The notes beneath the pieces were generated by a model. It did not search any database. It had not been told where the DNA came from and worked only from the letters and a program-made list of their open reading frames with translations. Position numbers and translations under genes: made by a program. A stretch of 64,000 nucleotides of DNA from an uncultured Acidobacteriota bacterium (GTDB lineage: Bacteria > Acidobacteriota > Terriglobia > UBA7540), in NCBI GenBank assembly GCA_963804995.1, contig CAWDSK010000006.1, positions 1,760,001-1,824,000 on the forward strand, in the 5' to 3' direction. Numbering within the stretch: position 1 is the stretch's first letter; each line of letters opens with the position of its first letter. Shown here in pieces: positions 2,658 to 52,521 of this stretch.

Positions 2658-3055
2658 AATTGCCTCCTCTCCCAATCGTAAATCATCATAATTGTAACGT
2701 GTTGGACGCTCAGACTCAACAGGGAGGTTGTCTTTCCGACCACAGCAAGAAATATCCTCCGAACGCCCCACGATCTCGATAGACGAGTGCGAAGAATCTC
2801 ACGAACTATGGGGTAAGGTCAATGAGGTTGTCAACTTTCTTTGACCATGGACCCGCTGTCCCCGATTTCGGTCTCCGTGACTGTGTCCTCGCCACCCCAA
2901 GCGCCAAAAAGGCAGACTTTGGGGCATTTCCACACTCCAGCCGGATACCCTGCAACCCAATGGCCAGCCTCACCGCAGAGGCGCTGAGACGCAGAGAGCT
3001 TCGTAGCGCGGTCCCCCCCCCGCCTCTGGGGTCTGTGGCTCCTCGTAGGCTGGCG

Positions 3056-4968
3056 GTTGCGGTAGGGATACCGGTTACCCGGTACCCCCCGCACGGATCC
3101 GTACGTGCGCTGGTTAGCGCATACGGCTCTTATCTCGGATGTGTGGCGGCGAACCGTTGGGATGGCCAAGGATGCACAACGTGCGGAGCAGGCAACCAGC
3201 AGGCCGCAAGCTTCCCCAGTCGGTCCCAGTTGAGGCGGTGGCGTTGACTGCGTTGACGCAGTTGCGTTCGCCACAGTCGGGTCAACCGTTCCCGAAAGAT
3301 TCGCAGGCGGTCGAGGTTTCCCGGTACCGCGTGATAGTTGAAGTAGCCTTGCACGACCGACCGGAGCCATTTACCCGTATCCGCGATGGGATCGTGCCGA
3401 CGCTGCCGGAGTTGTTGCTTGAGTTCCTGCAACTTCCCCCGCAGGCGCTTGCTGATCGTCTTCCGCTTCACGGTAAATTGCCCCCTCCGGTTCTTCCCGC
3501 TGATATGCGTGAAGCCCAGAAAGTCGAACGTCTCCGGCTTACCTTCTCCTCTCCGTTTCCGGTAAAGTTCGGCAAACGGCCCGAACTCGATCCGGCGCGT
3601 TTTGTCAGGATGCAGTTCCAATCCAAACTTCCCCACCCGCTCCCGGAAATCCTCCAGAAAGCGGTCGGCTTCCGTCTGCGATTGGAATCCAAGGACCGTA
3701 TCGTCGGCATACCGCACCACGACCACGTCTCCCCGGGCGTGCTTCTTGCGCCACGCCTGCACCCACAGGTCAAAGACGTAGTGCAGATAGATATTCGCCA
3801 GCAGGGGCGAGACCACCGCCCCTTGTGGCGTACCCATCTCCGTCTCCGACCATTCGCCTTCCTCCCTCACCCCGGCTTTCAGCCATTTCTGGATGAGCCG
3901 GAGAATCCGGGGGTCGGCGACGCGATGCTGCACGAACTTGAGCATCCATTCGTGGGATATCGAATCGAAAAATCCACGAATGTCCGCGTCAAGAACGTAG
4001 TTCACGTGCTTCACCGTGAGCGCGTACGAGAGCGCGTCCAGCGCTTGATGCTGGCTGCATCCCGGTCGAAAGCCATACGAGAAGCCCAGAAAGTCTTCCT
4101 CGTAAATCGCCTTGAGGATGGTGACCACGGCCTGTTGGACGATCTTGTCCTCCAGTGCCGCAACCCCCAACGGACGTTGCCGCCCGTCGCCTTTCGGGAT
4201 ATACGCCCTTCGCGAGGGCTTCGCTCGGAATGCTCCGCGGTGGACCCGGCTGTGCAGATCGACGAGTCGACCTTCCAGCCCGCTTTCATACTCCTGCCAC
4301 GTCATGCCGTCTACTCCCGGTGCAGCTTTTCGCTTCAAGGCGTAAAAGCTTTCCCGCAGCAGATCGACCGTTAAGTGGTGGAGCAAGGCCGTGAACTTCA
4401 TCTCCCTGTGTTCCTTCGCGGCTTTCCGCACACCCGCGAGTCCCTGGGACACGCGTGCCCCGCTCTGTGTCGGGTGCGTGTTAGGCCAACGGGTGTTCTC
4501 CTTGATCAGCGGCCTTCCCTCCTCATTCTCCGCCAACGGCTTCCCGTCTTTGTTCAAATGATTCATCGGTACTGTTCCGCTGTCCGACTCCTCGAAAGCG
4601 TGCAGGCGGGCTGTACGGCCATCGCCTTTTCCCGCCGTCCGGCCACGATCTACGGCGGCCGGCGCCTCCGAGGTCTCCCGGTTCTCGTGCAGAAAGTGTC
4701 TAGGCGTGTCTGGGGTCTACGACTACGCAGGACTGTGCCGGAACTCGCGTTGGCGTCCCGGCCTCATGTTGCCTTCCGTTTAGTCTGAAAACGTCGGCGT
4801 CCTGATTGGACATTTTCGAAGCTCAATACCCAGCCCACCTATTCCCCTGTTTACGCTTCACCGTGCGCCTCACGACGCCCAGCGCAAAACTCGGGGCCGA
4901 GTGGATCGCTACTCCTTCCTCGTGAGAAATTTTCATTCTCTGCTTTCTGCCGGTTTATCCCGGCGCAC
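3056..4968 (-). mobile_element. Complete group II intron (~1.9 kb)
   Basis: 5' end GTGCGCCGGGATAAACCGGC at 4968; domain V GAGCCGTATGCGCTAACCAGCGCACGTACGGATC and domain VI ending CCCTACCGCAAC at 3056; internal RT ORF. Confidence 0.93.
3130..4566 (-). CDS. ltrA: Group II intron reverse transcriptase/maturase (no C-terminal endonuclease domain)
   Basis: APGVDG, RPLG..DK.VQ, GTPQG..SPLLANIYL, RYADD and FDFLGF motifs. Confidence 0.95.
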   Translation of the reverse strand: MNHLNKDGKPLAENEEGRPLIKENTRWPNTHPTQSGARVSQGLAGVRKAAKEHREMKFTALLHHLTVDLLRESFYALKRKAAPGVDGMTWQEYESGLEGRLVDLHSRVHRGAFRAKPSRRAYIPKGDGRQRPLGVAALEDKIVQQAVVTILKAIYEEDFLGFSYGFRPGCSQHQALDALSYALTVKHVNYVLDADIRGFFDSISHEWMLKFVQHRVADPRILRLIQKWLKAGVREEGEWSETEMGTPQGAVVSPLLANIYLHYVFDLWVQAWRKKHARGDVVVVRYADDTVLGFQSQTEADRFLEDFRERVGKFGLELHPDKTRRIEFGPFAELYRKRRGEGKPETFDFLGFTHISGKNRRGQFTVKRKTISKRLRGKLQELKQQLRQRRHDPIADTGKWLRSVVQGYFNYHAVPGNLDRLRIFRERLTRLWRTQLRQRSQRHRLNWDRLGKLAACWLPAPHVVHPWPSQRFAATHPR

Positions 4969-5018
4969 CAGACCCCTGTACTTGGGGGTCTGCGACGCAC
5001 CAAAAGGGCAGGGATAAG

Positions 5019-5753
5019 TCACGAGCTTGAAGCATTGCTCCGCTCGCACTGGGGCCGCTGCGCGTAGGGGATAGGATCCTCCACCTCAGCCTCCCGGAAA
5101 GCACGCAAGCGCAAAGCACAGCTATCGCACACTCCGCATGCGGTGTCCTGGCCCTGGTAGCACGACCAGGTAAGCTCGAACGGCGCACCCAGTTCCAGGC
5201 CGCGCCGCACAATCTCACTCTTCCGCATGTGGATGACCGGGGTCACGATTTCAAGTTGTGTCTCGGGCTTGGTTCCGGCGGCAATCACTCGATTAAACGC
5301 TTCGTAATATTCCGGACGGCAATCGGGGTATCCGGAGCTGTCTTCCGCCACCGCACCAATGAAGATCTTTCGTGCTCCCAGGACTTCTCCCCAGGAGACG
5401 GCGATGGAAATGAAGTGTGCGTTGCGGAACGGAACGTAGCTCGAAGGGATACCCTGCCTCTCGAGATTAGCAAGCTCAACCTTGATGTTGGGATCCGTCA
5501 AGCTTGACCCGCCAATCTGTTTCAAGTGATCGAGGCAGCACACCAAACGATGCTCGGCCCGGTAGAAGTCCGCCAAGGCGTGGAAGGCGCGGAGTTCACG
5601 AGCTTCCGTGCGCTGTCCGTAACCGACGTGCAGCATGGCAAGCCGATAATCGAGGTACGCAATCGCGGTCGTGACACAACTGTCCATGCCGCCACTGGCG
5701 AGCACGACAGCAAGGGCTTTGTCCGTGGTCCGTCGTCCGTTGTCCGTGGTCAT
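5019..5753 (-). CDS. queC: 7-cyano-7-deazaguanine synthase
   Basis: SGGMDS, YGQR, YVPFRN, YPDCR, TWSCY and CGVCDSC motifs. Confidence 0.95.
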
Positions 5754-5764
5754 GGTTCGTTCAT

Positions 5765-5841
5765 TCACCGCAGAGGCGCTGAGACGCAGAGAAAAGCCCA
5801 TTGGTTTTCGAAGCTCTGCATCTCAGCGCCTCTGCGGTTGA
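5765..5841. repeat. REP family B doublet (TCACCGCAGAGGCGCTGAGACGCAGAGA / inverse)
   Basis: Inverted pair; a single half at 2970-2997; related TCACCACAGAG elements at 31.7, 54.2 and 59.7 kb. Confidence 0.7.
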
Positions 5842-5872
5842 TATAGTTAGTTCCCAATCCCAACCCCGGTTC

Positions 5873-6511
5873 TTAAACTCCCCTAGTTTCCGGGTCCCAA
5901 ATGAATTTATGAATCTGCATGCCCATGCGGACGCGCAGCCTGTCGCGCAGGATCCAATCGGCAAGCTGGCGGGGCGGCATTTGGCCGAATACCGGCGAGA
6001 GAATGATTTCGTCAACGCGTTTCTTCAGTTCATGCTTCGACATAAACTCGCAGGCGTAGCGATAGTCGGCTTCATCCGCAATCACAAACTTGACTTGATC
6101 TTTCCGTTCCAAGACTTCCAGGTTGTCGGAGCAGAATTGCCCGCCCTCGCCGCTCCCCGGGCACTTGACGTCCATGATCTTGACAACGGCGCGCGGCAGC
6201 CGGCGGATGGACCGTTCCCCGCTCGTCTCGATGAGAACCTGGAACTCCTCAGCCAGCAGGCGCTCGGTCAAGGGATAGACGTCGTCCTGGAGCAGCGGCT
6301 CGCCGCCCGTCAGTTCCACCAATTTGCCGCCGAAGTCGCGAACTCGAGCCATGACCTCATCCACGGTCATCTTCTGGCCGCCATGAAAGGCGTAAGCGGT
6401 GTCGCACCAATGGCAGCGCAGATTACATCCCGTCAGGCGGACGAAGACGCAGGGAAGCCCCGCGAAAGTGGACTCACCCTGAATCGATTTGAAGATTTCA
6501 GTAATGACCAT
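5873..6511 (-). CDS. queE: 7-carboxy-7-deazaguanine synthase (radical SAM)
   Basis: EIFKSIQGES, CNLRCHWCDT (CxxxCxxC) and TGGEPL motifs; adjacent to queC. Confidence 0.93.
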   Translation of the reverse strand: MVITEIFKSIQGESTFAGLPCVFVRLTGCNLRCHWCDTAYAFHGGQKMTVDEVMARVRDFGGKLVELTGGEPLLQDDVYPLTERLLAEEFQVLIETSGERSIRRLPRAVVKIMDVKCPGSGEGGQFCSDNLEVLERKDQVKFVIADEADYRYACEFMSKHELKKRVDEIILSPVFGQMPPRQLADWILRDRLRVRMGMQIHKFIWDPETRGV

Positions 6512-6576: not shown

Positions 6577-7898
6577 GGGAGTGTCACAGTTTGAATTTCA
6601 TCTCGCTGGACAGACGGCGGAGCGGTATTAGGATGGATGCATGAAGCGCCTCCGCAAGCCACTCCGCAAAGACCCCATCCAGCTACTTTACTAAGATCGT
6701 AAGGTCGACAAGAGGTTGCGGGCCGCTCCCCCGATAAAAAAGATTACTGACTATATATGGACAATCGAGCAAATACCTGCTAATGTGGGTCGCTTTAAAT
6801 GGGAGGAATTATGGGAAATCAGATTCCAGTGCAGGTAATCCACCAAGCCAAGGATCCCAGCGCTCTCCCGGCTTACGTCTCCTTTTCATCGGAAATAATG
6901 CCATTTACCACCGAGAGTCTTATCGCGCTGCTATCTCACCTATCGAACCAGGGAGTGCGACATGTTTACCTGATGATCTCCACTCCCGGAGGGAGTTTCA
7001 TGCACGGCATGAATCTCTATAATGTCCTTCGTGCCTTCTCCTTCAAGTTAACCACACATAATGTTGGGAATGTCGACTCGATTGGGAACGCAATTTTTCT
7101 AGCCGGGGAGGAAAGATTTGCGTGCCCGCACTCCACCTTCATGTTTCACGGAGTCACCACGCAAGTTCCCGCGATTACTGCCGAGGCCAAATCCCTACGG
7201 GAGCGTCTTGATGCGATCAGCGGCGTTATCCAGAGGAACGGGAATACTCTCGTGGGGCGGACTCGGATTAGGCATGAGGATGTTAATGATTTGTTCGGTG
7301 AAGCCAGCACCAGAGACGCGGCATTTGCCGTGGGTGGCGGATTTACTCACGAGGTTCGCGATACCAGGATGGGCTCCGGCGCCTCCGTGTCCTCCCTGAT
7401 GACTGCCGAGGCCAAATCCCTACGGGAGCGCCTTGACACAATCACGGGCGATATTCAGAGGATTGGGAACATCCTCGTGGAGCGCACTCGGATTAAGCAG
7501 GAAGAGATTAATGATTTGTTCGGTGAAGCCAGTACCAAAGACGCGGCATTTGCCGTGGGCTGCGGGATTGTTCACGAGGTTCGTGATGTCAAAATTCCCG
7601 TAGGCGCCTCCGTATTTTCTCTCGTATTCCAACGCTAAAGCGTTGCAATCGTTGCAAGGCATCGACGGCCTGGTTCTTGAGTCACGCATGATCTGCTCCT
7701 GATAGGTGGGACAGGACACTTTCCAGAAAACCTGAGGGGCTGCTTCAATGAGGTAAAAAGCTATTCCCCACTGCCAAGTCCAGCGCGCCATACTAGCCGC
7801 AGGTTACCATGTAGTCAAGTATAATTTCTAACAATTAATTTTCAAGTCGGCTGTCGCAGAATTGGCTCTATCAAAGTTATTCAAACTGAGACACTGCC
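6577..7898. mobile_element. Transposase-less TIR element with 8-bp TSD carrying a ClpP-like passenger gene
   Basis: Left TIR GGGAGTGTCACAGTTTGAAT versus right TIR (reverse complement) GGCAGTGTCTCAGTTTGAAT, 18/20 match; AGGGAAGC duplicated at 6569-6576 and 7899-7906. Confidence 0.85.
6799..7638 (+). CDS. ClpP/crotonase-like peptidase with internal 75-aa duplication
   Basis: ISTPGGS, VDSIG (Ser) and FMFHG (His) motifs; TAEAKSLRERLD...HEVRD block present twice. Confidence 0.8.
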   Translation: MGGIMGNQIPVQVIHQAKDPSALPAYVSFSSEIMPFTTESLIALLSHLSNQGVRHVYLMISTPGGSFMHGMNLYNVLRAFSFKLTTHNVGNVDSIGNAIFLAGEERFACPHSTFMFHGVTTQVPAITAEAKSLRERLDAISGVIQRNGNTLVGRTRIRHEDVNDLFGEASTRDAAFAVGGGFTHEVRDTRMGSGASVSSLMTAEAKSLRERLDTITGDIQRIGNILVERTRIKQEEINDLFGEASTKDAAFAVGCGIVHEVRDVKIPVGASVFSLVFQR

Positions 7899-8467: not shown

Positions 8468-8551
8468 AGGTGCTAACCCCTACCCCCCCATCGGTAACTA
8501 TCGAGCCCGAGGCATTTGACATATTTCCTTAAGCGCGGTATGGTTTTCCAT

Positions 8552-8818
8552 ATGAAGACGACTTTGATCATCCCGGACCCTATCTTCCGTGATTTGAAGC
8601 ATCGCGCCGCGGAGCGTGGCGAGACTCTTTCCGCGCTGGTCAGCGAATACCTGCGCCAGGGTCTGCGTGAAAGCCGCAAACTCCAGGGTCCCTTTCGCTT
8701 TCCCACCTTCAGCGCCGGTCTCCCCAAAGTAGACGTCGCCGATCGTCAGGCCCTGTATGACGTGCTCGATGCCGAGCGCGACGCGCGGCTCTATAGACGG
8801 GCCGGAAAGAAAGGCTGA
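8552..8818 (+). CDS. VapB-like ribbon-helix-helix antitoxin
   Basis: MKTTLIIPDPIFRDLKHRAAERGETLSALV RHH signature, 2 bp upstream of a PIN gene. Confidence 0.85.
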   Translation: MKTTLIIPDPIFRDLKHRAAERGETLSALVSEYLRQGLRESRKLQGPFRFPTFSAGLPKVDVADRQALYDVLDAERDARLYRRAGKKG

Positions 8819-8820
8819 GA

Positions 8821-9261
8821 GTGTTTGTTGTCGACACGAATCTCCTGATCTACGCGGCCATTCGGGAATTCCCCGAACACGATCAGGCCACCAAGCTCGT
8901 GGCAAAGTGGGGATCGGCGGCGGAGCCTTGGTGCATTACTTGGTCGATTGCCTACGAATTCCTGAGGGTGGTCACGCATCGGGCCGCCCTTCCCCGTCCC
9001 CTCACCTTCGCCGATGCCTGGAGTTTCATCGACAGCCTTCGCGGGTCGCCCTCCTTTGGAATCCTGGTGGAAACGGACCGCCACGCGGAAGTGGTTCGCG
9101 ACCTCACCCGTGAATACCCGCGCCTTTCCGGCAACCGTTTGCATGATCTTCACATCGCCGCGGTCATGAGAGAGCACGGCGTGCTGGAGATTCGCACCGC
9201 CGATACCGGTTTCCACCAATTCAAATTCCTGCGCGTCGTTAATCCGCTTGGACTGCGGTAG
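8821..9261 (+). CDS. vapC: VapC-family PIN toxin
   Basis: VDTNLLIYA...YEFLR...HDLHIAA...TAD PIN acidic motifs. Confidence 0.9.
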   Translation: MFVVDTNLLIYAAIREFPEHDQATKLVAKWGSAAEPWCITWSIAYEFLRVVTHRAALPRPLTFADAWSFIDSLRGSPSFGILVETDRHAEVVRDLTREYPRLSGNRLHDLHIAAVMREHGVLEIRTADTGFHQFKFLRVVNPLGLR

Positions 9262-9593: not shown

Positions 9594-9673
9594 CTAGCCA
9601 CTAACCACTATCCACTAGCCACTGCTTTACTCATACCGCAGCGCCACCATGGGATCAACCTTGGTCGCCCGGC
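9594..9673. repeat. 80-bp direct repeat of the permease 3' end (partner 10504-10583)
   Basis: 79/80 identical; encodes RATKVDPMVALRYE-stop on the minus strand; a shorter third copy at 9522-9547. Confidence 0.9.
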
Positions 9674-9728
9674 TCCTGATCCTAATAGCGGCGGCGAAAG
9701 AATCGAGTCCAGCTCATGGTGAGCTCCG

Positions 9729-10175
9729 CTAAAGCTGGTTTGGATGCACTGGGGTGAGACCCGGGAAACGATTGAAGTCTGTCACATTGAGCGTCAGGAT
9801 GTGGGGCACGCGATGCACGTACATTGCCGCTGCCAAGCGTGCGTCATGGACCTGAACCCCCAGCACACCATATTGGAAAATGATTTTCCGCCATTCTTGG
9901 TAAACCGCCTCGCTGTCGGGCAAGAGAGTCATGCCACGCTCGATGGCGCGGACTTCGGTCTCAGCTTCGTTGACGGATAAACCGAGACCATTGCGGCCCA
10001 CAGGCCGCGTCATGACGTTCCACAGTTCCGCAATATTCTGGTGCGTGTAGTGAAGCGTAGTGCCCTGCCTAGCCAGTTGAGCGAGGGCCAATGTTACAAG
10101 TTGGTGTTGTGGATCAGAGCGCCTGGTTATCCGCAACAGGATGTTGGTATCGACCACACACGCATCGATGGCCAT
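9729..10175 (-). CDS. PIN-domain toxin
   Basis: VDTNILLR, QNIAELWNV, VHDARLAA and LTLN..DF motifs. Confidence 0.9.
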   Translation of the reverse strand: MAIDACVVDTNILLRITRRSDPQHQLVTLALAQLARQGTTLHYTHQNIAELWNVMTRPVGRNGLGLSVNEAETEVRAIERGMTLLPDSEAVYQEWRKIIFQYGVLGVQVHDARLAAAMYVHRVPHILTLNVTDFNRFPGLTPVHPNQL

Positions 10176-10421
10176 TTAGTCGTGATCCTGGTAGATCCAC
10201 TCTCGCGAAATGTTTTCGGGCAGCGGCGGAATCTTATCGGAGAACTGGGCCAGGGAGTCGAGCCAGGCACGAATCTCTTCGGGAGTTCGCGCTTGCCGGG
10301 TTCCAACCGAGCGCATTTCTACCTGTCGCGCCAGGATTTCTTCGGCGTAGGCTTCCGGCCGCAAACCACGAGCCTGGGCCTGTGCGGCAAGTTCGTCCGG
10401 GACGTTGACTCGGATTTCCAT
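10176..10421 (-). CDS. Antitoxin of the PIN TA module
   Basis: 81 aa with RHH-like N-terminus and SREWIYQDHD C-terminus; abuts the toxin start. Confidence 0.8.
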   Translation of the reverse strand: MEIRVNVPDELAAQAQARGLRPEAYAEEILARQVEMRSVGTRQARTPEEIRAWLDSLAQFSDKIPPLPENISREWIYQDHD

Positions 10422-10536
10422 AGTAGAACTTTAACACAGCCTAGCGGGCGTCGGGCAAACAGAATTAGCGGCTGGCGCACAGGCAGGAGTGTCTGTGCCA
10501 CCACTAGCCACTAACCACTATCCACTAGCCACTGCT

Positions 10537-13242
10537 TTACTCATACCGCAGCGCCACCATGGGATCGACCTTGGTCGCCCGGCGGGCGGGAATATAACAA
10601 GCGAGCAGCGCTACTGCTGTCAGTAGGAGTGAAACGCTTACAAACGTCACGGGGTCAGTCGGTTTCACTCCATAGAGCATCCCAGCAATCACCCGAGTAG
10701 CTGCGAGCGATATCAGCAACCCGATTGCCACACCGAGCAGAGTTAGGCGCACGCCTTGCCCCACAACGAGCCTTAGCACATCACCCTGGCTAGCGCCGAG
10801 TGCCATACGGATGCCCATTTCATGCGTGCGTTGGGTCACCGAATAGGACATGACACCATAAATGCCGACGGCGGCCAGGAGTAGCGCCAGAAGACCCAGT
10901 CCGCTGGAGAGCATGGCACCTACTTGCGAAAACCATACCCAGCGCCCGACGCTTTTTACGAGTAGCGTGCAAGAGGCCTGGACGTTCGGATCCAACCTTT
11001 TGACTACACGTGGCAGCATAGCCGCAACGGTACCCGGATTCGTCTCAGCCCGGACAAGCAACTTCATGCCTAGTTGGCCGGTTTGAACAGGTGGACCCTC
11101 CGTGGTTTGAAGTATGGGAAGATAGACATAGGGCTCATCTGCTCCCCACAATCGTGCGCCTCGCGTGTTCTTAACTACGCCGACTATTTCAGCGAAAGGA
11201 ACGGACGGCGGCCCCGGCCTGAGTCGCTTGCCCACGGGGTCTCCTCCTGGCCAAAACTGTCGCGCCATCGCTTCGTTGACAATCGCAACAGGCGTTCCCC
11301 CCCGCGTGTCCAGAACACTAAAGTTACGGCCGCGCACAATTGGGACGCCCAACGTCTCGAAGTAGTTCGGCGAGACAACCCAATAATTCACCGAAAGTGA
11401 CGACAGGCTTGCTGAAGTCTCACGGCCCCCAATCGTGATGGGCGCCCCTCTACTGATGCCGCCTAACGGAGCCAGGGATGCCAAGCTTACGGACTTCACT
11501 CCGGGTAGAGTTTGCAATTGGTCTGTAAGTTCGCGGTGAAACTCCGCTGCCCGTATGTCGTCATAACCATGTAGATCCAAGTCCAAGGAGACAACGAGCA
11601 CGTGCTTCGCATCGAATCCCAGATCAACCGTTTGGGCTCTCCTCAACGCCCGGACTAGCAAACCCGCGCCCAGCAGGAGCACGACACAGATCGAGGTTTC
11701 TGCAACTACCAACAGGGTGTAGAGGCGAGAGCGGCTTAGCCCCTGGCCGAAGGGGTTGCCTCCGTCCTTAATAGCAGATAATAGATCGGGTGTCGAGGCT
11801 TGCAATGCCGGCGCGAGACCAAAGGCGGCTCCCGTGATGAGTGACAAAAGTAGTGTGTAGCCGAGTATTGGGATGTCCAGGCCCAGATGAAGAGCGATCG
11901 TTTGTTCATACGGAGGTTTCAGCGCTTCGATCAAGAGGTTCGGCATCCAACACGCCAACAAAAGTCCAACCCCCCCGCCCAACAGGGCAACCAGGGAACT
12001 CTCTGTCAGCAACTGTTGGATCAAACGGCGACGGGTCGCGCCCAGCGACAAGCGGATACCAATTTCTTTTTGTCGTCCAGTCGCCCGCGCCAGCACTAGG
12101 TTGGCCACGTTCGCACACGCGATCAGCAAAACCATGCCGACAGCGGCCATCACAAGAAAAGCCAGCGAATCGAATTGTCCTCGCACATCAGGACGCGCCA
12201 AGAAAGACCCCGGCGTCAGCGTAATACTAGCCTGCGCACTGGTTCCCAAGTAATCTCGAGAAAATCGATTAATGAGGACATCCATGCCTCCCTGAGCTTG
12301 CCTGATGGACACGCTAGGCCTTAGACGAGCAACAACCTCGAGCCAAAACGAACCGCGGTCGGGCAGTCGATCATCGTGCGGCATCAGCTGGCCCTGCATC
12401 GTCAGCGGCACCCAAAGATCAGGAATTTGAGGCTCTGTACCAATGAAGTCTTGGCCGGCGATTCCCACTATCGTGAACCGAATGCCATTGAGCTTCACAC
12501 TCTTCCCCACTGCGGCCGGATCAGAATCAAAGTGCCGCTTCCAGAAGGCGTGGCTCAGAACCACCACTGGGTCAGCACTGGGAGCCTGATCTTCTTCGGG
12601 CGTAAACGTGCGCCCGAGCACAGCCTCCCCGCCAAGCACGGTGAAATAGTTTCCCGACACGAGGAGTGCATGGGCTTCTTCGGCTTCCCGAGTAGTGGCA
12701 TCGCTACCGAGTTCAACCGCTATCCAAGCGTGCGCGACGAGGCCCGAGAATACGCTGTTGGAGTCTCGAAGGGCAACATACTCAGGATAGGAGAACGACC
12801 GGTAGCTGCCGGGTTCGCCCTGAATGCGCTGATAAACGTTCACGACAGTAGTGGGGTCCTTCACCGGAAGAGGTCGCAGCGTTACTGCATCGAACAATGT
12901 GAAGATAGTGGTGTTCAGGCCGATGCCCAATGCTAGCGTGAACACCGCAACCGCTGTGAAGCCGGGATTGCGGCGCAACTGGCGCAGGCCGAAGCGAACG
13001 TCCTGCCAGAGCGTCTCTGCCCAATCCCATTCCCACATTTCGCGGCTCCGCTCTTGCGCCAGGGTCACGTTGCCGAACCGGCGCAATGCTGCGTAGTGAG
13101 CTTCCTCGGGCGGCATCCCGGATTCCAGGTTCTCCTGCTCTTCCATGGCGAGATGCGAGCGAATCTCTTCCGCGAGATCGTCCACCGGCTTCCGCCGGCG
13201 AAACAGCGCCCCGAGTTTCGAAAGCTCGCGATGCCAAGTCAT
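10537..13242 (-). CDS. ADOP-type (duplicated MacB/FtsX-like) ABC permease
   Basis: Permease prefix domain (ALRRFGNV), LALGIGLNTTIFT, LLIACANVANL, EIGIRLSLGA and DPMVALRYE; no ATPase gene nearby. Confidence 0.92.
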   Translation of the reverse strand: MTWHRELSKLGALFRRRKPVDDLAEEIRSHLAMEEQENLESGMPPEEAHYAALRRFGNVTLAQERSREMWEWDWAETLWQDVRFGLRQLRRNPGFTAVAVFTLALGIGLNTTIFTLFDAVTLRPLPVKDPTTVVNVYQRIQGEPGSYRSFSYPEYVALRDSNSVFSGLVAHAWIAVELGSDATTREAEEAHALLVSGNYFTVLGGEAVLGRTFTPEEDQAPSADPVVVLSHAFWKRHFDSDPAAVGKSVKLNGIRFTIVGIAGQDFIGTEPQIPDLWVPLTMQGQLMPHDDRLPDRGSFWLEVVARLRPSVSIRQAQGGMDVLINRFSRDYLGTSAQASITLTPGSFLARPDVRGQFDSLAFLVMAAVGMVLLIACANVANLVLARATGRQKEIGIRLSLGATRRRLIQQLLTESSLVALLGGGVGLLLACWMPNLLIEALKPPYEQTIALHLGLDIPILGYTLLLSLITGAAFGLAPALQASTPDLLSAIKDGGNPFGQGLSRSRLYTLLVVAETSICVVLLLGAGLLVRALRRAQTVDLGFDAKHVLVVSLDLDLHGYDDIRAAEFHRELTDQLQTLPGVKSVSLASLAPLGGISRGAPITIGGRETSASLSSLSVNYWVVSPNYFETLGVPIVRGRNFSVLDTRGGTPVAIVNEAMARQFWPGGDPVGKRLRPGPPSVPFAEIVGVVKNTRGARLWGADEPYVYLPILQTTEGPPVQTGQLGMKLLVRAETNPGTVAAMLPRVVKRLDPNVQASCTLLVKSVGRWVWFSQVGAMLSSGLGLLALLLAAVGIYGVMSYSVTQRTHEMGIRMALGASQGDVLRLVVGQGVRLTLLGVAIGLLISLAATRVIAGMLYGVKPTDPVTFVSVSLLLTAVALLACYIPARRATKVDPMVALRYE

Positions 13243-14059: not shown

Positions 14060-14221
14060 CGTAGCGCGGTCCCCCGGTTTTGGGGTCCGCGGTCCTTCAT
14101 TTGAAAGATCCACAAATCCTAAACCCGGGCGGCCACACTACCCACGGTTCTTCGTCGCGATACATTAACTCAAGTGGGGCACCAAGAACCGCGGACCCCA
14201 AAACCGGGGGACCGCGCTACG
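14060..14221. repeat. GTAG-type REP doublet (family D)
   Basis: GTAGCGCGGTCCCCCGGTTTTGGGGTCCGCGGT with a perfect inverse copy at 14189-14220; related to the intron target site. Confidence 0.8.
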
Positions 14222-14689: not shown

Positions 14690-14984
14690 GAGAAGGAGTT
14701 AGGAGCGAGAAGCGAGAAGCTAGGAGTCAGGAGCTAGGAGGCCCTCGAACGCACGCAGGATCTATCCATGCCCAAAAATCAGCTTGTCCCCTGAACCCCG
14801 GATAAACTCTGACTTACGACCGCCGACTTCTAACTCCTAACTTCTAGCTCCTGTCTTCCGACTCCTAGCTCCTAACTCCTACCTTCTAGCTTCTGCCTTC
14901 TCCTTCTAGCTTCTAGCTCCTGTCTTCCGACTCCTAGCTTCTAACTCCTGGCTCCTAACTTCTAGCTCCTAGCTTCTCGCTTTC
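14690..14984. repeat. Degenerate heptamer tandem arrays in inverted arrangement
   Basis: GAGCTAG/GAAGCGA units at 14690-14740 facing CTAGCTC/CTAACTC/CTAGCTT units at 14820-14984. Confidence 0.85.
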
Positions 14985-16922
14985 TCATTCTCGCATGAAG
15001 GCCTTCACGTCTTCCAGCCGATTCGTCTTCTGGTAGGGTGGCAGGCTTTCGAGGAAGACTCGCCCATACGGCTTGCGCATCATGCGGTGATCCAGGATGA
15101 CCAGCACGCCGCGGTCCGTCTCACTGCGGATCAGCCTGCCGAAGCCCTGCTTGAGCGTGATGACGGCCTGCGGCACCTGATAATCGCTGAAGGCGTTGCC
15201 TCCCTCATCGTTGATATGGCGGATGCGCGCGGCGGTAATCGGGTCCGACGGCACGGCGAAGGGCAGGCGATCGATCAGCACCGCGCTTAACTGTTCACCT
15301 TGCACATCCACACCCTGCCAGAACGAACTGGTGCCGAAGAGGACCGCATGGGGAGTCGAGCGGAAGCGGTCCAGCAACTCCGTGCGCGGCATCGAGCCCT
15401 GCAGCAGCAGGGGATAGCGCACCCGCGGCCGCACGCGCTCATATACGTCGCGCATTTGCACGTAGGAAGTGAACAGCACGAAGGCGCGCCCGCGCGTGGC
15501 CTTTAACAGTTGCACCACTTCCTCCGCCGCCAGACGCGCGAAATCCGGCTCGCGCGGATCGGGCAAATGCAGCGGCGTGTAGAGCAGCGCCTGGTGCGCG
15601 TAATCGAAGTGCGAGTCGAGGATTCTTTCCCGCGCATTCTGCACACCCAGGCGCCGCTTAAGGAAATCGAAGGTGCCGCCCACGGCCAGCGTCGCGGAGG
15701 TCAGGATCACGGTCTCCACCTGCTCGAACAAACGCTCGCGCAGCAGGGCGGAAACGTCAATGGGCGTCGCCTCCAGAAACACGCCGCGCCCGCGCCGCTC
15801 CCACCAATACACCATATTGCGCTCGTTCGATTCCATCACCACCTCGAACGCCCCGCGCAATTCCTTGGCGCGCCGTGTCAGGTTGTGGATCTCCTCGGGT
15901 TGGTCCGGCAGGCGGCTCAGTTCGGTTTCGAGAAGCAGCAGCGCATTCGTCAGGCCCGTGTAGGCCCCGCGATGGACGTCGAGGAAACTATCGCGATTGT
16001 CGAAGTTGGTGCGGCCCTGGTTGGCGGGAAAAAGCTCGAAAAAATTATCGGCGCGGCGGCGCAGCTCACCCACCGCGGAGAGGGGCTCCGGCGCCTTGAG
16101 ACCCTTCTGCCGCAGCGTCACTTCCGTGTCGCGCGCCAGCTCCTCCACCCGGTAATTGCTGACCTGCAAGCCGAAGTACTGCGTGGCCACGTCTTCCATC
16201 TCGTGCGCTTCATCGAAAACCAGTGCCGCGTAATCGGGAAGCAGCGTGGCGTAATCCATCTGGCGCAAAGCGAGGTCGGCAAAAAACAGATGATGGTTCA
16301 CAATCAGCAAATCGGATTCCGCGGCGCGCTGGTGCATGAGCGTGATGAAACAACGCTCGAATTGCGCGCACTTCTGGCCGGTGCAGGTCTCGCGACGGGC
16401 GTCCACCTGCTTCCAAAGTTCGCTCGAATCCGGCAGCCAACCCAGTTCCGCGCGGTCGCCCGTTTCCGTGCGCTCCTCCCACTTGCGCAGCTTCGGGTAC
16501 TGCTCGACTTCTTCCATGCCGTTCAGCACCGGCTGCTTCTCGATGTCATAAAGCTTTTGCCGGCACAGATAATTCTGGCGGCCCTTCATCAGCGTGACGC
16601 GCAGTTGAGGGAAAAGCTTTTTTAGAAACGGCACGTCCTTGTAGAAAAGCTGCTCCTGCAGATTCTTCGTGCCCGTGGAAATCACGGCGCGCGCCCCACT
16701 GCGCATCAGCGGCACCAGATACGCCAGCGTCTTGCCCGTGCCCGTCCCCGCCTCCACAATCAGGTGCTGGCGGCTCTCAAGCGCCGACTCGACGCTCTCC
16801 GCCATTTCGAGCTGGCCGGGACGGTACTCGTAATTCGGATGGTGACGAGCCAGCCATCCCCCCGGCGCAAAAACCTTCTCGAGGGGGAGTTTTTCAGACA
16901 ACTTTTTATCCGTAATCGACAT
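14985..16922 (-). CDS. DinG/YoaA-family Fe-S DNA helicase
   Basis: EAGTGTGKT, KGRQNYLC, Fe-S Cys residues, FDEAH, TSATL and QGFGRLIRS motifs. Confidence 0.93.
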   Translation of the reverse strand: MSITDKKLSEKLPLEKVFAPGGWLARHHPNYEYRPGQLEMAESVESALESRQHLIVEAGTGTGKTLAYLVPLMRSGARAVISTGTKNLQEQLFYKDVPFLKKLFPQLRVTLMKGRQNYLCRQKLYDIEKQPVLNGMEEVEQYPKLRKWEERTETGDRAELGWLPDSSELWKQVDARRETCTGQKCAQFERCFITLMHQRAAESDLLIVNHHLFFADLALRQMDYATLLPDYAALVFDEAHEMEDVATQYFGLQVSNYRVEELARDTEVTLRQKGLKAPEPLSAVGELRRRADNFFELFPANQGRTNFDNRDSFLDVHRGAYTGLTNALLLLETELSRLPDQPEEIHNLTRRAKELRGAFEVVMESNERNMVYWWERRGRGVFLEATPIDVSALLRERLFEQVETVILTSATLAVGGTFDFLKRRLGVQNARERILDSHFDYAHQALLYTPLHLPDPREPDFARLAAEEVVQLLKATRGRAFVLFTSYVQMRDVYERVRPRVRYPLLLQGSMPRTELLDRFRSTPHAVLFGTSSFWQGVDVQGEQLSAVLIDRLPFAVPSDPITAARIRHINDEGGNAFSDYQVPQAVITLKQGFGRLIRSETDRGVLVILDHRMMRKPYGRVFLESLPPYQKTNRLEDVKAFMRE

Positions 16923-29255: not shown

Positions 29256-31039
29256 GTGAATATCAGCGGTCAATTTTATCACAAGGCAAAAATTGTGACT
29301 AGAAAGCCCGAGACATTCTTCGAGGAAATGAAGCGCTATGTCGGCTTCACTGAAGAAGATGCTCGCCTCTTGCACTCTCTCGGTGCAGGCATGGATCCCT
29401 ACTTGCCGGTCATGTCGGAGCGCTTCTACAACCAGATCACGCAACACCCTGAGGCGGACAAGGTCTTCACCGGCGGCCAGGAACAGATTGACCGGTTGAA
29501 GCACACGTTGCAAATCTGGGGGCGGCGTCTGTTTGAGGGGCCTTTCGACGAGGATTATGCTGCCGAGCGTTATAAGATCGGCGTTCGCCACGTACTCATC
29601 GGCTTGCCCCAGCGCTATATGATCAGCGCCATGGGAGTGGTGCGGGTGTGCCTCCAGGAAAGCCTGAATGAAGTTTTGCGCTCTGAACCCGAGCGCTTGG
29701 ATGCCACCCGGCTCGCACTGGACAAGATCCTGAACCTTGATCTGAACATGATGTGCGAGTCTTATTTCCAGGGAAGTATCCGCCACCTGAGTGAGCTGAA
29801 CCGAAAACTGGAACGCGCCAACTTCGAACTGGCGGAGTTGAGCAACGTCAAGACGGAGTTTCTGGCAACCACTTCGCACGAACTCCGCACCCCCCTCAAT
29901 TCCATACTGGGCTTTACACGGCTGATTCTCGATGGCCTGTGTGAGAACCGCGAGGAAGAGCGGGAGTTGCTGCGGGATGTCCTTTCCAGCGCCCAGCACC
30001 TCCTTTCCATCGTCAACGACCTGTTGGACGTGGCTAAGATCGAGGCGGGCAAACTCCGCTTGTCGGTGGAGAAGGTGGACCTCCAATCCATCATCCGAGA
30101 GGCCAAAGCCGTGGTGGGTGTACAGGCGGCGGCCAAGCACCTGACAATCGTCGACGAGACGGAATCGTTGCCTCTGCCTCTGGTGTCCGCCGATGGAGCC
30201 CGCGTCAAGCAGGTCCTGATCAACCTCATGAGCAACTCCGTCAAGTTCACCGACAAGGGCTGGATTACGCTGCGCGGGCGCTCTTTCCCGGATCGCGGCT
30301 TTGTGGAGCTCGAGCTTCAGGACACCGGGGTCGGAATTCCCCCGGCGATGCAGCGGCATCTCTTTGAGAAGTTCCGCCAGGTTGACAGCTCCTTCACTCG
30401 CCCGCAAGGTGGCAGCGGCCTGGGGCTGGCCATTTGCCGCAGCCTGGTGCAAATGATGGGGGGGCGTATCAAGCTCTGGAGCGCGGGCGTCGGCTGTGGA
30501 ACCACGGTGACTTTCTCACTTCCTGTGCGCCACGAGGTCGAAGATGCCGTGCACGTGAAAGGTAAGGAAGCCCTGGCCGCGGCCGGGAACGAAAACGGAG
30601 TGCGCGTTCTGGTGGTTGATAACGATCCGGAATTTCGCCGCTACCTCAAAACGCTGCTGACCAAGCGCGGTTACTACGTCCTGGGCGCAGCCACCGCAGA
30701 CGACGCGCTGGATGCTTCGCGCCGCTTCCGGCCGCAATTGCTGATCGTCGACTTGGCCCTGCCGCAGCGCCCCGGCGCGGAGTTGGCGGACGGCGCCGAT
30801 GTCATCTCCCAACTGCAGACGGGCGCCTTGGTTCGCGAAATCTATTGCTTGATGGTCACCGGCTATGACCCCATGGAGGCGCGCGAGCGGCTGTCACTGC
30901 TGCAAGTGACGCCGGAAATCTGGCAGAAGCCCCTCGAGGGCGGGAAATTCCTGGCGCGGCTGGAGGAGATTTTGCAAGGCTCCGGCTCGGCTCGAACCCC
31001 GGAGTCCGGCGCAAAGGCTGGCGGAGGAGCGGTAATGCA

Positions 31040-31043
<4 letters not shown>
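29256..31043 (+). CDS. Globin-coupled hybrid histidine kinase (protoglobin-HisKA-HATPase-REC)
   Basis: [13 protein letters not shown]...[10 protein letters not shown] sensor globin; SHELRTPL; G boxes; C-terminal receiver. Confidence 0.88.
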
Positions 31044-31125
<82 letters not shown>

Positions 31126-31179
31126 TAGCGCTTGCTGCGAGTCCCGGCAGAGTCGGGATAGGCACTAACCAATTTCATC

Positions 31180-31575: not shown

Positions 31576-31683
31576 CGAGACGGACGGTTTTTGGACCTTT
31601 GTGTCACGACGGGTAGCGTAAGTGGTCGGCGAATTTTGGCGTGTCCCAGACCCTGGGTTTTTGGTGGGACCTCGCGCGCTATG

Positions 31684-32013
31684 GTGGTCTCTGTGCGCTC
31701 TGTGGTGAATCCGTGTTTATGAAAAAATTCACCACAGAGGACACAGAGGTCACGGAGAGCAGCCGGAGAAAAAACGTGGGTCGATAACCAAGGAAGCGTG
31801 ATCTCCACCCGCGCCATCAGAAGGGCTCTGCTCTGTGGTCTCTGTGCGCTCTGTGGTGAATCCGTGTTTATGAAAAAATTCACCACAGAGGACACAGAGG
31901 TCACGGAGAGCAGCCGGAGAAAAAACGTGGGTCGATAACCAAGGAAGCGCAATCTCCACCCGCGCCATCAGAAGCGTTCTGCTCTGTGGTCTCTGTGCGC
32001 TCTGTAGTGAATC
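31684..32013. repeat. 151-bp tandem repeat (2.2 copies) built on family B palindromes
   Basis: Units start at 31684, 31835 and 31986. Confidence 0.88.
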
Positions 32014-32033
32014 TTATCTTCGCGCCCCCCGCA

Positions 32034-32699: not shown

Positions 32700-33015
32700 G
32701 AGTAATTATCCTCCGGCAAAGCCGGAGGCTTTACGGTGGCTGGACCCTCAAAGGGGCCTGACCGCCACCGTCGGGAAAAGACCCCTCACCCGACCTCGTC
32801 CCTCGGCCACCCTCTCCCCAAGGGAGAGGGAAAGGGTTTCACCACGCGGTAGCGCCCCCAGAGAAACCCCCGCCCTCTCCCCGGGGAGAGGGTGGACCGC
32901 CGCCGGCGTTTTCATCAGCCGGGGCGGGACGGGTGAGGGGTCTTTTCCCGGCCAACGAACCGTTACTCCAGAAGATGTCAAACTCTTACTGCCTCACCGG
33001 CAGAGCCGGGGGATC
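32700..33015. mobile_element. Non-autonomous IS200/IS605-like shell containing a family A REP doublet (32773-32949)
   Basis: Subterminal hairpins CCTCCGGC-AAA-GCCGGAGG and CCGGC-AGA-GCCGG; no tnpA between them. Confidence 0.55.
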
Positions 33016-33019
33016 TCCC

Positions 33020-33107
33020 GACGAATTAGCACGAGCACACGGATGTGGGTGGGGAGCCGGTCGACGTCCCTCTCGACCGACGCCCGATATCTAATCTCCC
33101 AGCTCAT
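33020..33107 (-). pseudogene. Truncated RelE/ParE-like toxin
   Basis: MSWEIRYRASVERDVDRLPTHIRVLVL overlaps the stop of the upstream ORF and is cut at the IS200-like end. Confidence 0.55.
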
Positions 33108-33366
33108 GCTTGTATTTTTTCAACAGTTTAGTAATCGGTTGGACGGGCTCATGCTTGCGGGAATCGCATATCAGATTCAGCGCTTCATCTTCGCTTAGCG
33201 GGCGTCTTTCGTACGGGATTCTTGCACGTTCCATGATTGCGGTGACGCCGGGTGCATTGCGCAGTGATACCAAGCGCGGAAGAGGAGAGAGGTGCTCATC
33301 CACCTGGCCTACGGGATTCTTCATGAGAGGCCGTTTTGTGGCTGCGTTGTTGCGCCGCTTTCTCAT
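33091..33366 (-). CDS. Putative antitoxin
   Basis: 91 aa; acidic/helical C-terminus overlapping the RelE-like start. Confidence 0.45.
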   Translation of the reverse strand: MRKRRNNAATKRPLMKNPVGQVDEHLSPLPRLVSLRNAPGVTAIMERARIPYERRPLSEDEALNLICDSRKHEPVQPITKLLKKYKHELGD

Positions 33367-33448
33367 ATCTACAAGTGTTCCCCACCAGGGAAGTGATGGC
33401 CAGAAAAACCGCGAATTTCAGGAACAGAGGTCTGCGATACCTGCCTTC

Positions 33449-33661
33449 CTAGTGTGGTGTCCCGTGTTAGAGTTGACAATGGGTAGAACCCCCTCACCCG
33501 TCTGGCATCGGCTGATGAGAACGCCTCGGCCAGCCACCCTCTCCCCCAAAGGGGCGAGGGCAAGAAAATTAACTCTCCCCTCGCCCCCTTGGGGGAGAGG
33601 GGCTGGGGGGGGTGAGGGGGTCGGACAGCCTTGTCAAATAGTAACCGGGACACCACACTAG
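33449..33661. mobile_element. CTAG-bounded MITE type 1 with family A REP doublet
   Basis: TIR CTAGTGTGGTGTCCCG..TTGACAA at both ends. Confidence 0.8.
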
Positions 33662-33678
33662 AGACCTCGGAATTCGGC

Positions 33679-35311
33679 CTATCTTCCTCGTCTTGCGAAC
33701 CACTTGTAAATCTCCAGAGCAATCGCATCGAGCGTCGCCGCTCCCGTCTTGTCTTTTAGGGGATGATTGTTGGCGAGAATCGAAAAAGCCAGGCGTTTGC
33801 CCGTAGGCAGGTCCATATAACCGGAAAGCGTATTGACGTGCTCAACCGACCCTGTCTTGGCGTGAATCTTACCCTTCACAAGGTCCGCCTCCAAATGGTG
33901 TGCCAGGGTGCCATCGACCCCTGACACCGGCAAGGACGCAAAAAAAGTCGCGAAGTGCGGCGAGTTCGCCATGTAGAGGAGCAACTTCACGACCGCGTGC
34001 GGCGCCACCAGAATCCTCACGGGAAAGGCCTGAGCCGTCGGAAAAATAGGTCTCACCTGGCAGGATGCCCACCTGCTGGGTTGTAAACGTGTTGAGCACT
34101 TCAAGCCCCACGGTCAAACTGCCGAAGTTTTTCACCACGTGGCCCAGGGTTCGCAGCAGCATCTCCGCATGCAGGTTTTGGCTCTCCTTGTTGATCGCCT
34201 TGATCGCTTCGCTGAGCGGAGGCGAATCGTGCTCCCCCAGGACCTGCCGTGCCGGAGCCTTTGCGTAGAGATCCGGCTGCGAAGCGCCCTCCAGACGCGT
34301 CCAGTGGCGGACTTCGACCGGTCCCCTCACTTCAATGCCGCGGGCCACAAGGGCGCGCCGGAAAAGTTCCCCAACCAACCGGGGAGGATCGAGGATCGCC
34401 ACCGTGTCGATGTCCTCGGCGGCATCGGCAGGAATCTGGCCCCACACGTCGAGTTGCATGGCGCCGGGCAAGCGCTCAACAAAGATGCGCTTCTCGGTTC
34501 CGGGCGCGGTGGTCTCAACGCGATTTCGCAACTGGTAATAATCGGCCACAGGCTCCAGGCTCACAGCGGCAGCGACCCCTGCCTTCTCACCCGGCTTCAC
34601 GTGCAGTGTGAGCGCATTATCATTGAAGGCCAGCGCCGTGACGGGAGCGCCGTAGCCCCACTCAAGATCATCGGCAGCCCAGTTGGGCGCGAAAGGTTCC
34701 CAAAGAAAGTAACTGTCATCGGCAACCAAGGGTCCTGAGACCTCACGCACGCCGCGCGCTTTGACCTGCTCGGCAAGGTCCTCAAGGAATTTGTCCGCCG
34801 CTTGGTGCGGTCCGTGGAACGTGTAGGGGAAGGTGCGGCTGCCGAGATTCGGATCCCCACGCCCCACCAGATAGAGATTCGCGACGCGCCCCTCGGTATC
34901 CGGTGCGGCATCGCTTTCCACGGTGGTCCGGAACACATAACCAGGGCCCAACTTTTCAAGCGCCGCGGCGGTGGTGAACATCTTCATATTCGAAGCCGGA
35001 ATGTAAAGGTGATCCGCATCGCGCTCGTAAAGCAACTTTCCACTGGGAAGTTCGACAACCTCGATCCCCCAGAAGCCGCGTCGCGCATCATTCACGCCCA
35101 GAATTTGGTCGATGCGCCGGTCCAGCGCTTGGTTCCTCGGCGCGTGGGCGGCGGTGGCGGGAAGCTTCGAACCTCCCTCACCGGCAACCCCTGACTGCAC
35201 GGCTGGCTGCGTTTGCCCCACAGTCAGCGGCGCGCGCGGCTGCACCGCCCAGGCAAAGAGCAGCACGAGCAGTGCACCAATCCGTTTCGGGTGAAGTGGG
35301 ATTTTATCCAT
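33679..35311 (-). CDS. dacB: D-Ala-D-Ala carboxypeptidase/endopeptidase (PBP4), frameshifted near 34012
   Basis: PASNMK (SxxK), GRGDP, SQN and DGSGLSR; AKTG in the second frame. Confidence 0.9.
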
Positions 35312-35476
35312 CTCGGCCAAAGTGGTAGCTTGGCGTGTCCATCTAAAAAGCAGTGGATAGTGGTTAGTTCTTAGGGCACCAACCACTCAAGGCTGTTCAA
35401 ATTAGCGAGCGACCCCAGCGGCTTCGGTCGCCGCGGCGACAAAGCCTCTGGCTTTCCGGCCCGATCCGCTTGATTT

Positions 35477-35712
35477 CTAGTGTGGTGTCCCGGTTAATAT
35501 TTGACAAGGCTGTCCGACCCCCTCACCCCCCAGCCCCTCTCCCCCAAAGGGGCGAGGGGAGAGTTAATTCTCTTGCCCTCGCCCCTTTGGGGGAGAGGGT
35601 GGCTGGCCGAGGCGTTCTCATCAGCCGAGGCCAGAAGGGGGCCCCACGTTCTGCTTGTCGTGGGGGTGAGGGGGTTCTACCCCTTGTCAAATCTAACTCG
35701 GGACACTACCTG
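35477..35712. mobile_element. CTAG-bounded MITE type 1 (inverted copy of 33449-33661)
   Basis: Same TIRs and REP doublet, with a short extra insert. Confidence 0.78.
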
Positions 35713-35772
35713 ATTTCTCTTCCTCCGCGCCCCACACCGCCTGCAATCCAAAATCAAAAATCCAAAATCAGT

Positions 35773-36744: not shown

Positions 36745-36793
36745 GGGATCGTCCTTCGTCCGTGGTCAGTTGTCAGTTGCGAGAAGTTAGGAG

Positions 36794-37035
36794 CTAGTGT
36801 CATGTAACAGAAGTTCGCTGATTATTGGAAAACCCCCTCACCCCCCAGCCCCTCTCCCCCAAAGGGGCGAGGGGAGAGTTAATTTTCTTGCCCTCGCCCC
36901 TTTGGGGGAGAGGGTGGCTGGCCGAGGCGTTCTCATCAGCCGAGGCCTGACGGGTGAGGGGGTTCTACCCCTTGTCAAATCTAACTCGGGACACCACACC
37001 AGCTTAATCAACGGACTTCTGTTACAGGACACTAG
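36794..37035. mobile_element. CTAG-bounded MITE type 2 enclosing a family A doublet and a type 1 end
   Basis: TIR CTAGTGTCATGTAACAGAAGTTCGCTGATTA / TAATCAACGGACTTCTGTTACAGGACACTAG. Confidence 0.8.
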
Positions 37036-44662: not shown

Positions 44663-44681
44663 GGAGTTTGATTTGAATATA

Positions 44682-44762: not shown

Positions 44763-44788
44763 CGCCTGCGCCAGTACTTCGCCGCAGC

Positions 44789-52485: not shown

Positions 52486-52521
52486 TCGCAGACCCCAAAG
52501 AACGGGGGTCTGCGCCAGCCT
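52486..52521 (+). repeat. Empty copy of the group II intron target palindrome
   Basis: TCGCAGACCCCAAAGAACGGGGGTCTG|CGCCAGCCT matches the rejoined intron flanks. Confidence 0.85.

Follow-up and report, generated by a model that had tools for sequence, protein, structure and literature searches.

Three target specificities are known for bacterial group II introns, namely homing sites, terminators and attC sites (PMC4424553; here and below, statements about published work refer to the consulted sections of each paper). The intron described here lies in a 64,000-nt stretch of contig CAWDSK010000006.1 from an uncultured Acidobacteriota bacterium (positions 1,760,001 to 1,824,000; this whole stretch is called the window), and it occupies a repetitive extragenic palindromic (REP) sequence. 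Like the class E introns S.me.I4 of plasmid pRmeGR4b and Cl.be.I2 (PMC5894124, PMC3753933), it combines a reverse transcriptase (RT)-maturase lacking an endonuclease domain with a 6-nt exon-binding site 1 (EBS1) and a weak EBS2; it differs from them in residing in about 40 copies in one REP family and in a domain V loop of 4 nt (6 nt without the U-A pair), the value published for IIE and IIF introns being 5 nt. RmInt1 and RmInt2, class D introns of Sinorhizobium meliloti (PMC5894124), are also endonuclease-less, biased toward the lagging-strand template and directed to a multicopy target. RmInt1 follows a lagging-template pathway with a target spanning -20 to +5, and the homing target of RmInt2, the inverted repeats of ISRm17, is repeated and non-coding. 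Their proteins are of a different class (the present protein shows 33-35% identity to the other RT matches on the GR4 plasmids), and the target here is a non-autonomous REP of about 270 copies rather than an insertion sequence (IS).

Class C introns at terminators or attC sites (PMC4424553, PMC7923331) are likewise endonuclease-less, intergenic, hairpin-adjacent and strand-biased; however, they use a 3-4 bp intron-binding site 1 (IBS1) behind a stem of any sequence, whereas here 6 bp lie within the stem and the other arm is unused. Class E fragments have been noted behind attC-like hairpins (PMC7923331). REPs are broken at one fixed position by IS1397, ISKpn1, IS621, ISPsy8, ISPa11, ISPpu9/10 and ISRm22 (PMC1525189), but these elements are DNA transposons; a table of that paper lists two of nine P. 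putida group II introns as REP-associated, which is the sole mention of introns in the sections consulted and carries no claim of homing. Finally, TeI3/TeI4 of Thermosynechococcus (PMC2882425) share with the present case a high copy number, EBS divergence leading to families with new targets, and derivatives without an open reading frame (ORF); their targets are genes, IS elements and intergenic sites, with REPs not named in the sections consulted.

Judged from the genome sequence, the intron is very probably an active or recently active class E intron that retrohomes into a REP linked to REP-associated tyrosine transposases (RAYTs), the repeat acting as its multicopy homing site; the copies themselves suggest that it is mobile. 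It is a complete group II intron of 1,913 nt on the minus strand (4968-3056, ends GTGCG...AAC) inside a REP palindrome, and its rejoined flanks match 52486-52521 (plus strand) in 33 of 36 letters, counted by eye. The earlier note had described this insertion and had proposed that an endonuclease-less intron uses a multicopy REP for homing, which the flanks of the other copies bear out: every readable copy is cut at the same REP position. A BLAST search of the 7.55-Mb genome with the intron gave 40 matches of at least 99.6% identity, 38 of them full length. The two incomplete ones, one short by 9 nt and the other a piece of 644 nt, lie at contig ends, and the number of distinct copies is 39 or 40, because the contig-end matches C2:649 and C9:390164 may be one copy; together the copies make up about 1% of the genome. 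The ORF is intact in 38 of the 39 near-complete copies (one is frameshifted), and all 39 keep the YADD motif. Where the 5′ flank is readable (n = 38) it ends in GGTCTG (33), GGTCCG (4) or AGTCTG (1), that is, RGTCYG, with a perfect 6-nt complement (the left arm) upstream of IBS1 in 37 cases, and all 39 readable 3′ flanks begin with CGCYA. Because the same junction recurs at all of these flanks, the match within the window is not a matter of chance.

The repeat, by its sequence features, is a true GTAG-family REP associated with RAYTs. After removal of the introns in silico, the genome has 270 hairpin sites of the form RGTCYG/CGCYA (the slash marks the insertion point), 255 of which are intergenic according to a simple ORF caller. 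On the opposite strand the repeat reads GTAG or CTGG followed by the stem, which is the layout of the GTAG family; REPs are defined as abundant, intergenic palindromes of 20-40 nt with a GTAG tag or a variant of it (PMC3733652). There are 14 matches to Y1 transposases in the genome, and the five proteins picked from them for scanning all pass the RAYT model NF047646. Inverted copies of this REP stand on either side of two RAYT genes (C5:58461 and C6:722534), one gene for each subfamily, and at both of them an intron occupies one of the flanking REPs. All five congeners checked have the REP family. Insertion takes place 2 nt into the tag, with the intron antisense to it. RAYTs depend on the GTAG tag beside the stem.

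The structural hallmarks of group II introns are present: the ends follow GUGYG...AY, and domains I, V and VI are recognisable, the last of them with its bulged A. The RT/maturase, which scores 342.5 bits against TIGR04416 (cut-off 300), is encoded within domain IV, and its reading frame ends at domain V. The protein is 57% identical to a disrupted RT on pRmeGR4b, which we equate with S.me.I4, the class E intron that PMC5894124 places on that plasmid; other RT matches on the two GR4 plasmids reach 32-37%. It is also 58% identical to the protein of an intron in NC_010627 that is listed as class E in a table of PMC8919778; an older list (PMC3552965, Table S1) has an 'incomplete' class D entry with coordinates overlapping that intron, and we followed the later table and the identities rather than the older label. 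By pairwise protein identity, and not by a tree, the intron is thus an endonuclease-less class E (IIE) intron. Class E traits found here are the missing endonuclease domain and, from covariation, a 6-nt EBS1 together with an EBS3 of the IIB type. For alpha-prime, which in class E lies at the tip of a stem-loop in DId3, the candidate is a single covarying pair (nt 60 with nt 222) in a terminal loop, G-C in 46 and A-U in 2 of 48 distinct rows, which are too few changes for certainty. A 5-nt domain V loop is a secondary RNA trait of IIE and IIF introns (PMC3753933); among the relatives, 7 of 62 have 5 nt. The class E label is kept despite the deviating loop because the class is defined on the protein. 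Assignment to class C was considered and rejected, given the six covarying EBS1 positions, the location of IBS1 inside the stem and the protein identities, and no terminator-like site was found at the intron junction.

Pairing between the intron RNA and its target could be traced through relatives. The 119 loci collected gave 89 distinct 5′ junctions, after 25 loci missed by the search patterns were set aside and duplicates were merged. EBS1 pairs with the GGTCTG of the 5′ exon, as the earlier note had anticipated that an EBS should, and at least five of six EBS1 pairs form at 84 of the 89 junctions, a figure inflated by choosing register and start for best pairing. A fixed-column test was therefore applied to the 57 rows that have both ends and at least five pairs (L114 left out). 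The best columns for -1 to -6 are intron nt 182-187, complementary in 55, 56, 51, 52, 52 and 44 of 57 rows, and the best column for +1 is nt 249 (54 of 57), a result independent of the row selection. In the same rows the EBS2 columns (nt 157-161) give a weak covariation signal, and no alignment column covaries with +2 to +6. Splicing of class E and F introns did not require EBS2, whose role in homing was left open (PMC3753933); the weak signal agrees with this, and EBS2 and occupancy are unlinked here (22/43 vs 4/11, p 0.5). EBS1 has the same sequence as the left arm of the hairpin, a simple consequence of the target being a palindrome; it follows that the intron competes with the stem, if the stem forms.

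The copies are strongly oriented. On one strand lie 15 of 15 copies on contig C6 (which holds the window), 4 of 4 on C5, 4 of 4 on C9 and 6 of 7 on C3, and on C2 the orientation flips at dnaA, with two minus-strand copies to the left and three plus-strand copies to the right. With polarity set from GC skew, KOPS (FtsK orienting polar sequence) counts and fourfold-site skew, 33 of the 34 assignable copies are in leading-strand sense, that is, inserted into the lagging-strand template; parS and dif motifs, sought for fixing polarity, were not found. The bias matches the main pathway of RmInt1 (PMC5894124), and class E introns are reported to have a moderate strand bias (PMC8919778). Retrohoming may proceed as follows. 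Host read-through would transcribe a copy, which would splice with the help of the maturase; at the replication fork the resulting ribonucleoprotein (RNP) would reverse-splice into lagging-strand template that is single-stranded, and cDNA synthesis could be primed from the nascent lagging strand, by analogy with the endonuclease-less class D intron RmInt1. The site is read, as far as the sequences indicate, through EBS1 (6 nt, the REP arm) and EBS3 (the +1 C). Since hundreds of intergenic REP sites are on offer, the presence of about 40 copies is explained.

Occupancy was counted on the 36 of 40 junctions with enough flank. On the favoured strand, REPs with GGTCTG/CGC are filled at 26 of 57 sites (26 of 47 clusters), and on the other strand the best-matching REPs are filled at 1 of 79. 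Favoured-strand REPs with GGTCCG are filled at 3 of 56, and their difference from the GGTCTG sites (p 7e-7) indicates that the match to EBS1 matters. One might suppose that the intron inserts loosely at many GGTCTG/C sites and that purifying selection spares the harmless insertions in REPs. Most non-REP sites are in fact genic, 34 of 36 scored insertions are intergenic, and selection against intron load has been argued elsewhere (PMC3522654). Selection alone nevertheless fails to explain the pattern, because sites that should be equally neutral stay empty: GGTCTG/C sites outside hairpins are filled at 0 of 457, among them 0 of 97 intergenic sites and 0 of 16 intergenic sites with the IBS2 core, and the mirror arms of the same hairpins at 0 of 71. 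This explanation is largely refuted and we consider it very improbable. No more credible is the suggestion that a single REP insertion spread as DNA, carried along by REPs that RAYTs had moved or copied by gene conversion, or that faulty assembly produced the copies. The two copies in REPs adjoining RAYT genes would fit such a history, and so would the 33 haplotypes seen among 39 copies, which are built from about seven shared, shuffled-looking single-nucleotide polymorphisms and suit gene conversion or polishing mosaics. The diversity of the flanks speaks largely against it, however: both REP subfamilies are occupied (CGCTAC in 24 copies, CGCCAG in 13), their loops differ and the outer flanks are unrelated. 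In addition, the strand bias is not common to the empty REPs, and the same junction is found with diverged introns in independent genomes.

What makes a REP a target beyond EBS1 and EBS3 is a matter on which the palindrome itself bears. The earlier note had drawn an analogy with hairpin targeting by class C introns; this does not carry over, given a class E intron with a 6-nt EBS1 plus EBS3, an IBS1 within the stem, mirror arms that are never filled and a stem stability that does not predict occupancy. The hairpin alone was rejected as the determinant, since the mirror arm, which lacks the +3 C and the IBS2 core, is never used. Neither EBS pairing alone nor a hairpin combined with EBS1 and EBS3 suffices, because such sites stay empty, and further determinants are needed because EBS1/EBS3 pairing alone never gives insertion. 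The best candidate may be the invariant GCYA at +2 to +5, part of the REP tag, which would be read by the protein. Stem energy (p 0.17), the IBS2 core (p 0.5), REP subfamily (p 0.38) and the sense of the upstream gene (15/31 vs 9/21) have no predictive value for occupancy. As an addition to REP homing, and not in place of it, the RNP might bind the REP hairpin on the single-stranded template, much as class C introns bind terminator and attC stems, and EBS1 might displace the left arm, a suggestion that we hold to be rather doubtful. It would agree with the nearly universal perfect left arm, with the joint change of EBS1, IBS1 and left arm in L049, L042 and the remnant C1:441118, and with the fact that favoured-strand GGTCTG/CGCYA sites outside hairpins are filled at 0 of 13 (p 0.001 against the REPs); but the IBS2 core is missing from all 13 of these sites, 11 of which our own gene calls place within ORFs. 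It also sits poorly with the empty mirror arms, with the similar stem energies of filled and empty sites, with a non-hairpin insertion by a REP-type intron (L035) and with the use of non-hairpin targets by most relatives. A stem that hides IBS1 could equally well hinder insertion, and the copies in one relative (G005) are mostly in weakened stems.

Several observations weigh against retrohoming into REPs as set out above. On the favoured strand a single non-hairpin site combines IBS1, the IBS2 core and CGC, so that sequence and structure cannot be told apart, and four copies sit at GGTCCG sites that mismatch EBS1. G005 speaks on both sides. In favour, its intron has EBS1 CGGACU and all six copies occupy ..CCG arms belonging to this REP family, in which empty GGTCCG sites (28) outnumber empty GGTCTG sites (8), so that EBS1 matches the commoner subfamily; against it, five of the six copies are in rare arms mismatched at -4 although the 28 perfect sites are empty. 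The mismatch is against both EBS1 and the stem (copies L002, L031-L034 and L051, two with a common 5′ flank), and possibly reflects easier entry into weak stems. Another genome, G026, has one non-hairpin copy and one with a different 3′ flank. As to the strand bias, the polarity skew is weak and was set after the intron strands had been seen, C1 and C9 (six copies) were left out, and one copy, C3:231098, opposes the bias.

Intron matches were found in 31 of 61 genomes searched, the closest relatives being mostly Acidobacteriota. The domain I tree, built on 83 rows after masking of the EBS columns, has a clade of 25 rows (97/91) that holds all 16 rows with a REP-arm-type EBS1, which come from seven genomes of the genus and from loci L069 and L079; the group was drawn from the first tree and the EBS1 type was read by the author. 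The other nine rows of the clade have different EBS1 sequences and targets. Outside it, most rows are at non-hairpin sites, with L042 as a distant hairpin case. The tree was also given an automatic REP label, which fell on 14 of 83 rows (nine changes); it was noisy, L084 being probably false and L034 missed, and was not used for counting origins. REP targeting is, on the sequences compared, confined to one sub-lineage, and most relatives use non-REP sites; changes in EBS1 may redirect relatives, either to variants of the REP or to different targets. To see whether the targets of other relatives are repeats as well, 16 rejoined 16-mers were counted in the present genome (G000), which is not their own, and the result was mixed: L048 gave 31 against 1 for the reversed control, L072 gave 9 against 0, and several were at control level. 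In run X2 one contig joins an intron 5′ end to a GTAG-type REP, a single weak sign from outside. Contigs from four of 20 listed public runs cover the intron but hardly the host flanks; no joint across 3056-4968 was seen in them, which is evidence neither for nor against splicing or an intron-free allele.

Some further properties of related introns may be mentioned. Non-canonical 5′ ends, 2 nt upstream, read GAAAGCG in L044, L046, L049, L050, L079 and L012, GATAGCG in L042 and the remnant C1:441118, and GTAAGCG in L069; the boundaries of L044 and L069 are fixed by REP rejoining and EBS1 pairing. ORF-less introns of about 650 nt occur at L044 (at the same REP position), L045, L047, L048, L058, L067, L071 and L023. 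L072-L075, L086-L088 and many of L096-L141, mostly from Acidobacteriaceae/Terriglobia, share a conserved target of about 30 nt, apparently on either strand. Within the present genome there are five 5′ remnants of other class E-like introns with different targets (C1:206552, C1:441118, C2:652257, C5:460087 and C6:842676), of which C1:441118 lies behind a hairpin with an arm that matches the remnant's own EBS1, and C9:36979 is a 3′ remnant of another. Thirteen further tblastn matches of 32-38% identity on C1, C3, C4, C5, C6 and C9, falling into a few multicopy groups, probably belong to other RT or intron families. Two pairs of copies of the intron itself lie at contig ends, their members separated by just 69 nt in one pair and 264 nt in the other.

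The features of the window that concern the intron are collected in Table 1. The earlier note had taken the repeat next to the intron for the partner half of a REP doublet; a degenerate REP does lie there, but head-to-tail with the interrupted one and not as an inverted doublet. Similarly, the REP presented as an empty target is an empty member of the family, yet it is hardly available, because it has the disfavoured plus-strand orientation of contig C6, whose copies are all on the minus strand. The queC stop codon is 50 nt before the intron, with no terminator-like or promoter-like site found between them, and read-through from queE-queC is for that reason a plausible source of precursor RNA.

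Table 1. Coordinates of the intron, its pairing elements and its surroundings in the window
Feature	Position	Strand	Basis or remark
Second, degenerate GTAG REP, same orientation as the interrupted one; arm GGACCG mismatches EBS1	3003..3038	+	Direct reading
3′ part of interrupted REP, CGCCAG (CTGG variant of GTAG tag on + strand)	3047..3055	-	
Group II intron, class E, complete	3056..4968	-	End motifs; genome copies at least 99.6% identical
Domain VI, bulged A at 3063 (8 nt from 3′ end)	3059..3094	-	Direct reading; stem predicted
Catalytic domain V	3096..3129	-	Direct reading; same motif in relatives
RT/maturase ORF, 478 aa, YADD, without endonuclease domain	3130..4566	-	TIGR04416 above cut-off; RVT_1 sole Pfam match
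Ribozyme domain I, part	4713..4933	-	Rfam RF02005 group-II-D1D4-6, 173 bits, E 2.4e-50
EBS3 (G)	4720	-	Pairs with 3′ exon +1 C; complementary in 54/57 relatives
EBS1 CAGACU in hairpin loop, delta U before	4782..4787	-	Pairs with IBS1 GGTCTG: 5 Watson-Crick + 1 G-U
Candidate EBS2 UGUCC	4808..4812	-	Partial pairing with -9 to -13; weak covariation
5′ part of interrupted REP: left arm, loop, right arm to IBS1 (4974-4969)	4969..4995	-	
queE-queC, upstream in intron sense	5019..6511	-	
Empty REP, same CTGG subfamily, rarely filled orientation	52486..52521	+	

The window contains other repeats as well. At about 14060-14220 (coordinates converted by hand) two REPs of the partner type (GTAG, mismatched arm) form an inverted pair, both empty. 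Dispersed repeats of a second family, about 80 nt long and often paired, have purine-rich palindromic ends and are seen at 602-740, 32866-36997, 43287-45313 and 57831-57912, and further palindromic families, in which units of 151 and 165 nt are repeated in tandem, are at 31680-32020, 54136-54435, 59649-59798, 2971-2997 and 5766-5839. Degenerate intergenic tandem arrays of 7 and 14 nt occupy 14800-14990, 31023-31141, 57680-57735 and 58201-58414. Two 80-nt repeats, 99% identical and 910 nt apart, lie in 9594-10583, the second forming the 3′ end of a permease gene; between them is a small ORF (9729-10175) that looks PIN-type toxin-like by eye, with a similar gene pair at 8516-9261. A ClpP-like protease ORF at 6799-7638 (+) has an internal duplication of 225 nt.

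In the open-licence full-text literature that was searched, subscription papers being outside its scope, no description of group II intron homing into REPs was found, and the consulted sections of PMC12584367, PMC2504315, PMC3522654, PMC2936281 and bioRxiv 10.64898/2026.09.22.753630 contain no REP case. The new part appears to be the REP target, combined with the ordinary mechanism of RmInt1-like endonuclease-less retrohoming; because the chemistry appears to be ordinary, the surprise is limited. A bolder, speculative possibility is a fourth natural mode of targeting, in which a IIB-type lineage has become a specialist of RAYT-associated REPs: the RNP would recognise hairpin and tag on the lagging-strand template, EBS1 would copy and displace the left arm and track drifting subfamilies, and the intron and the REP-RAYT system would be evolutionary opponents. 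Under the same scenario, a REP whose GTAG tag has been split from its stem by the intron would leave RAYT use.

Finally, the REP as a homing site, which very probably is its role, would explain why a site-specific intron could multiply to about 40 copies without hitting genes. The earlier note had called the REP a safe haven; this is apt for its location, while a benefit to host or intron is not part of what the data support. The association would join two mobile systems, the intron and the REPs, which rely on RAYT transposases. With about 270 REP variants, some filled and some empty, on both strands, the genome offers a natural mutagenesis panel for class E targeting, and this panel bears on the question, raised in PMC3753933, of what EBS2 contributes to homing: here its effect appears to be small.

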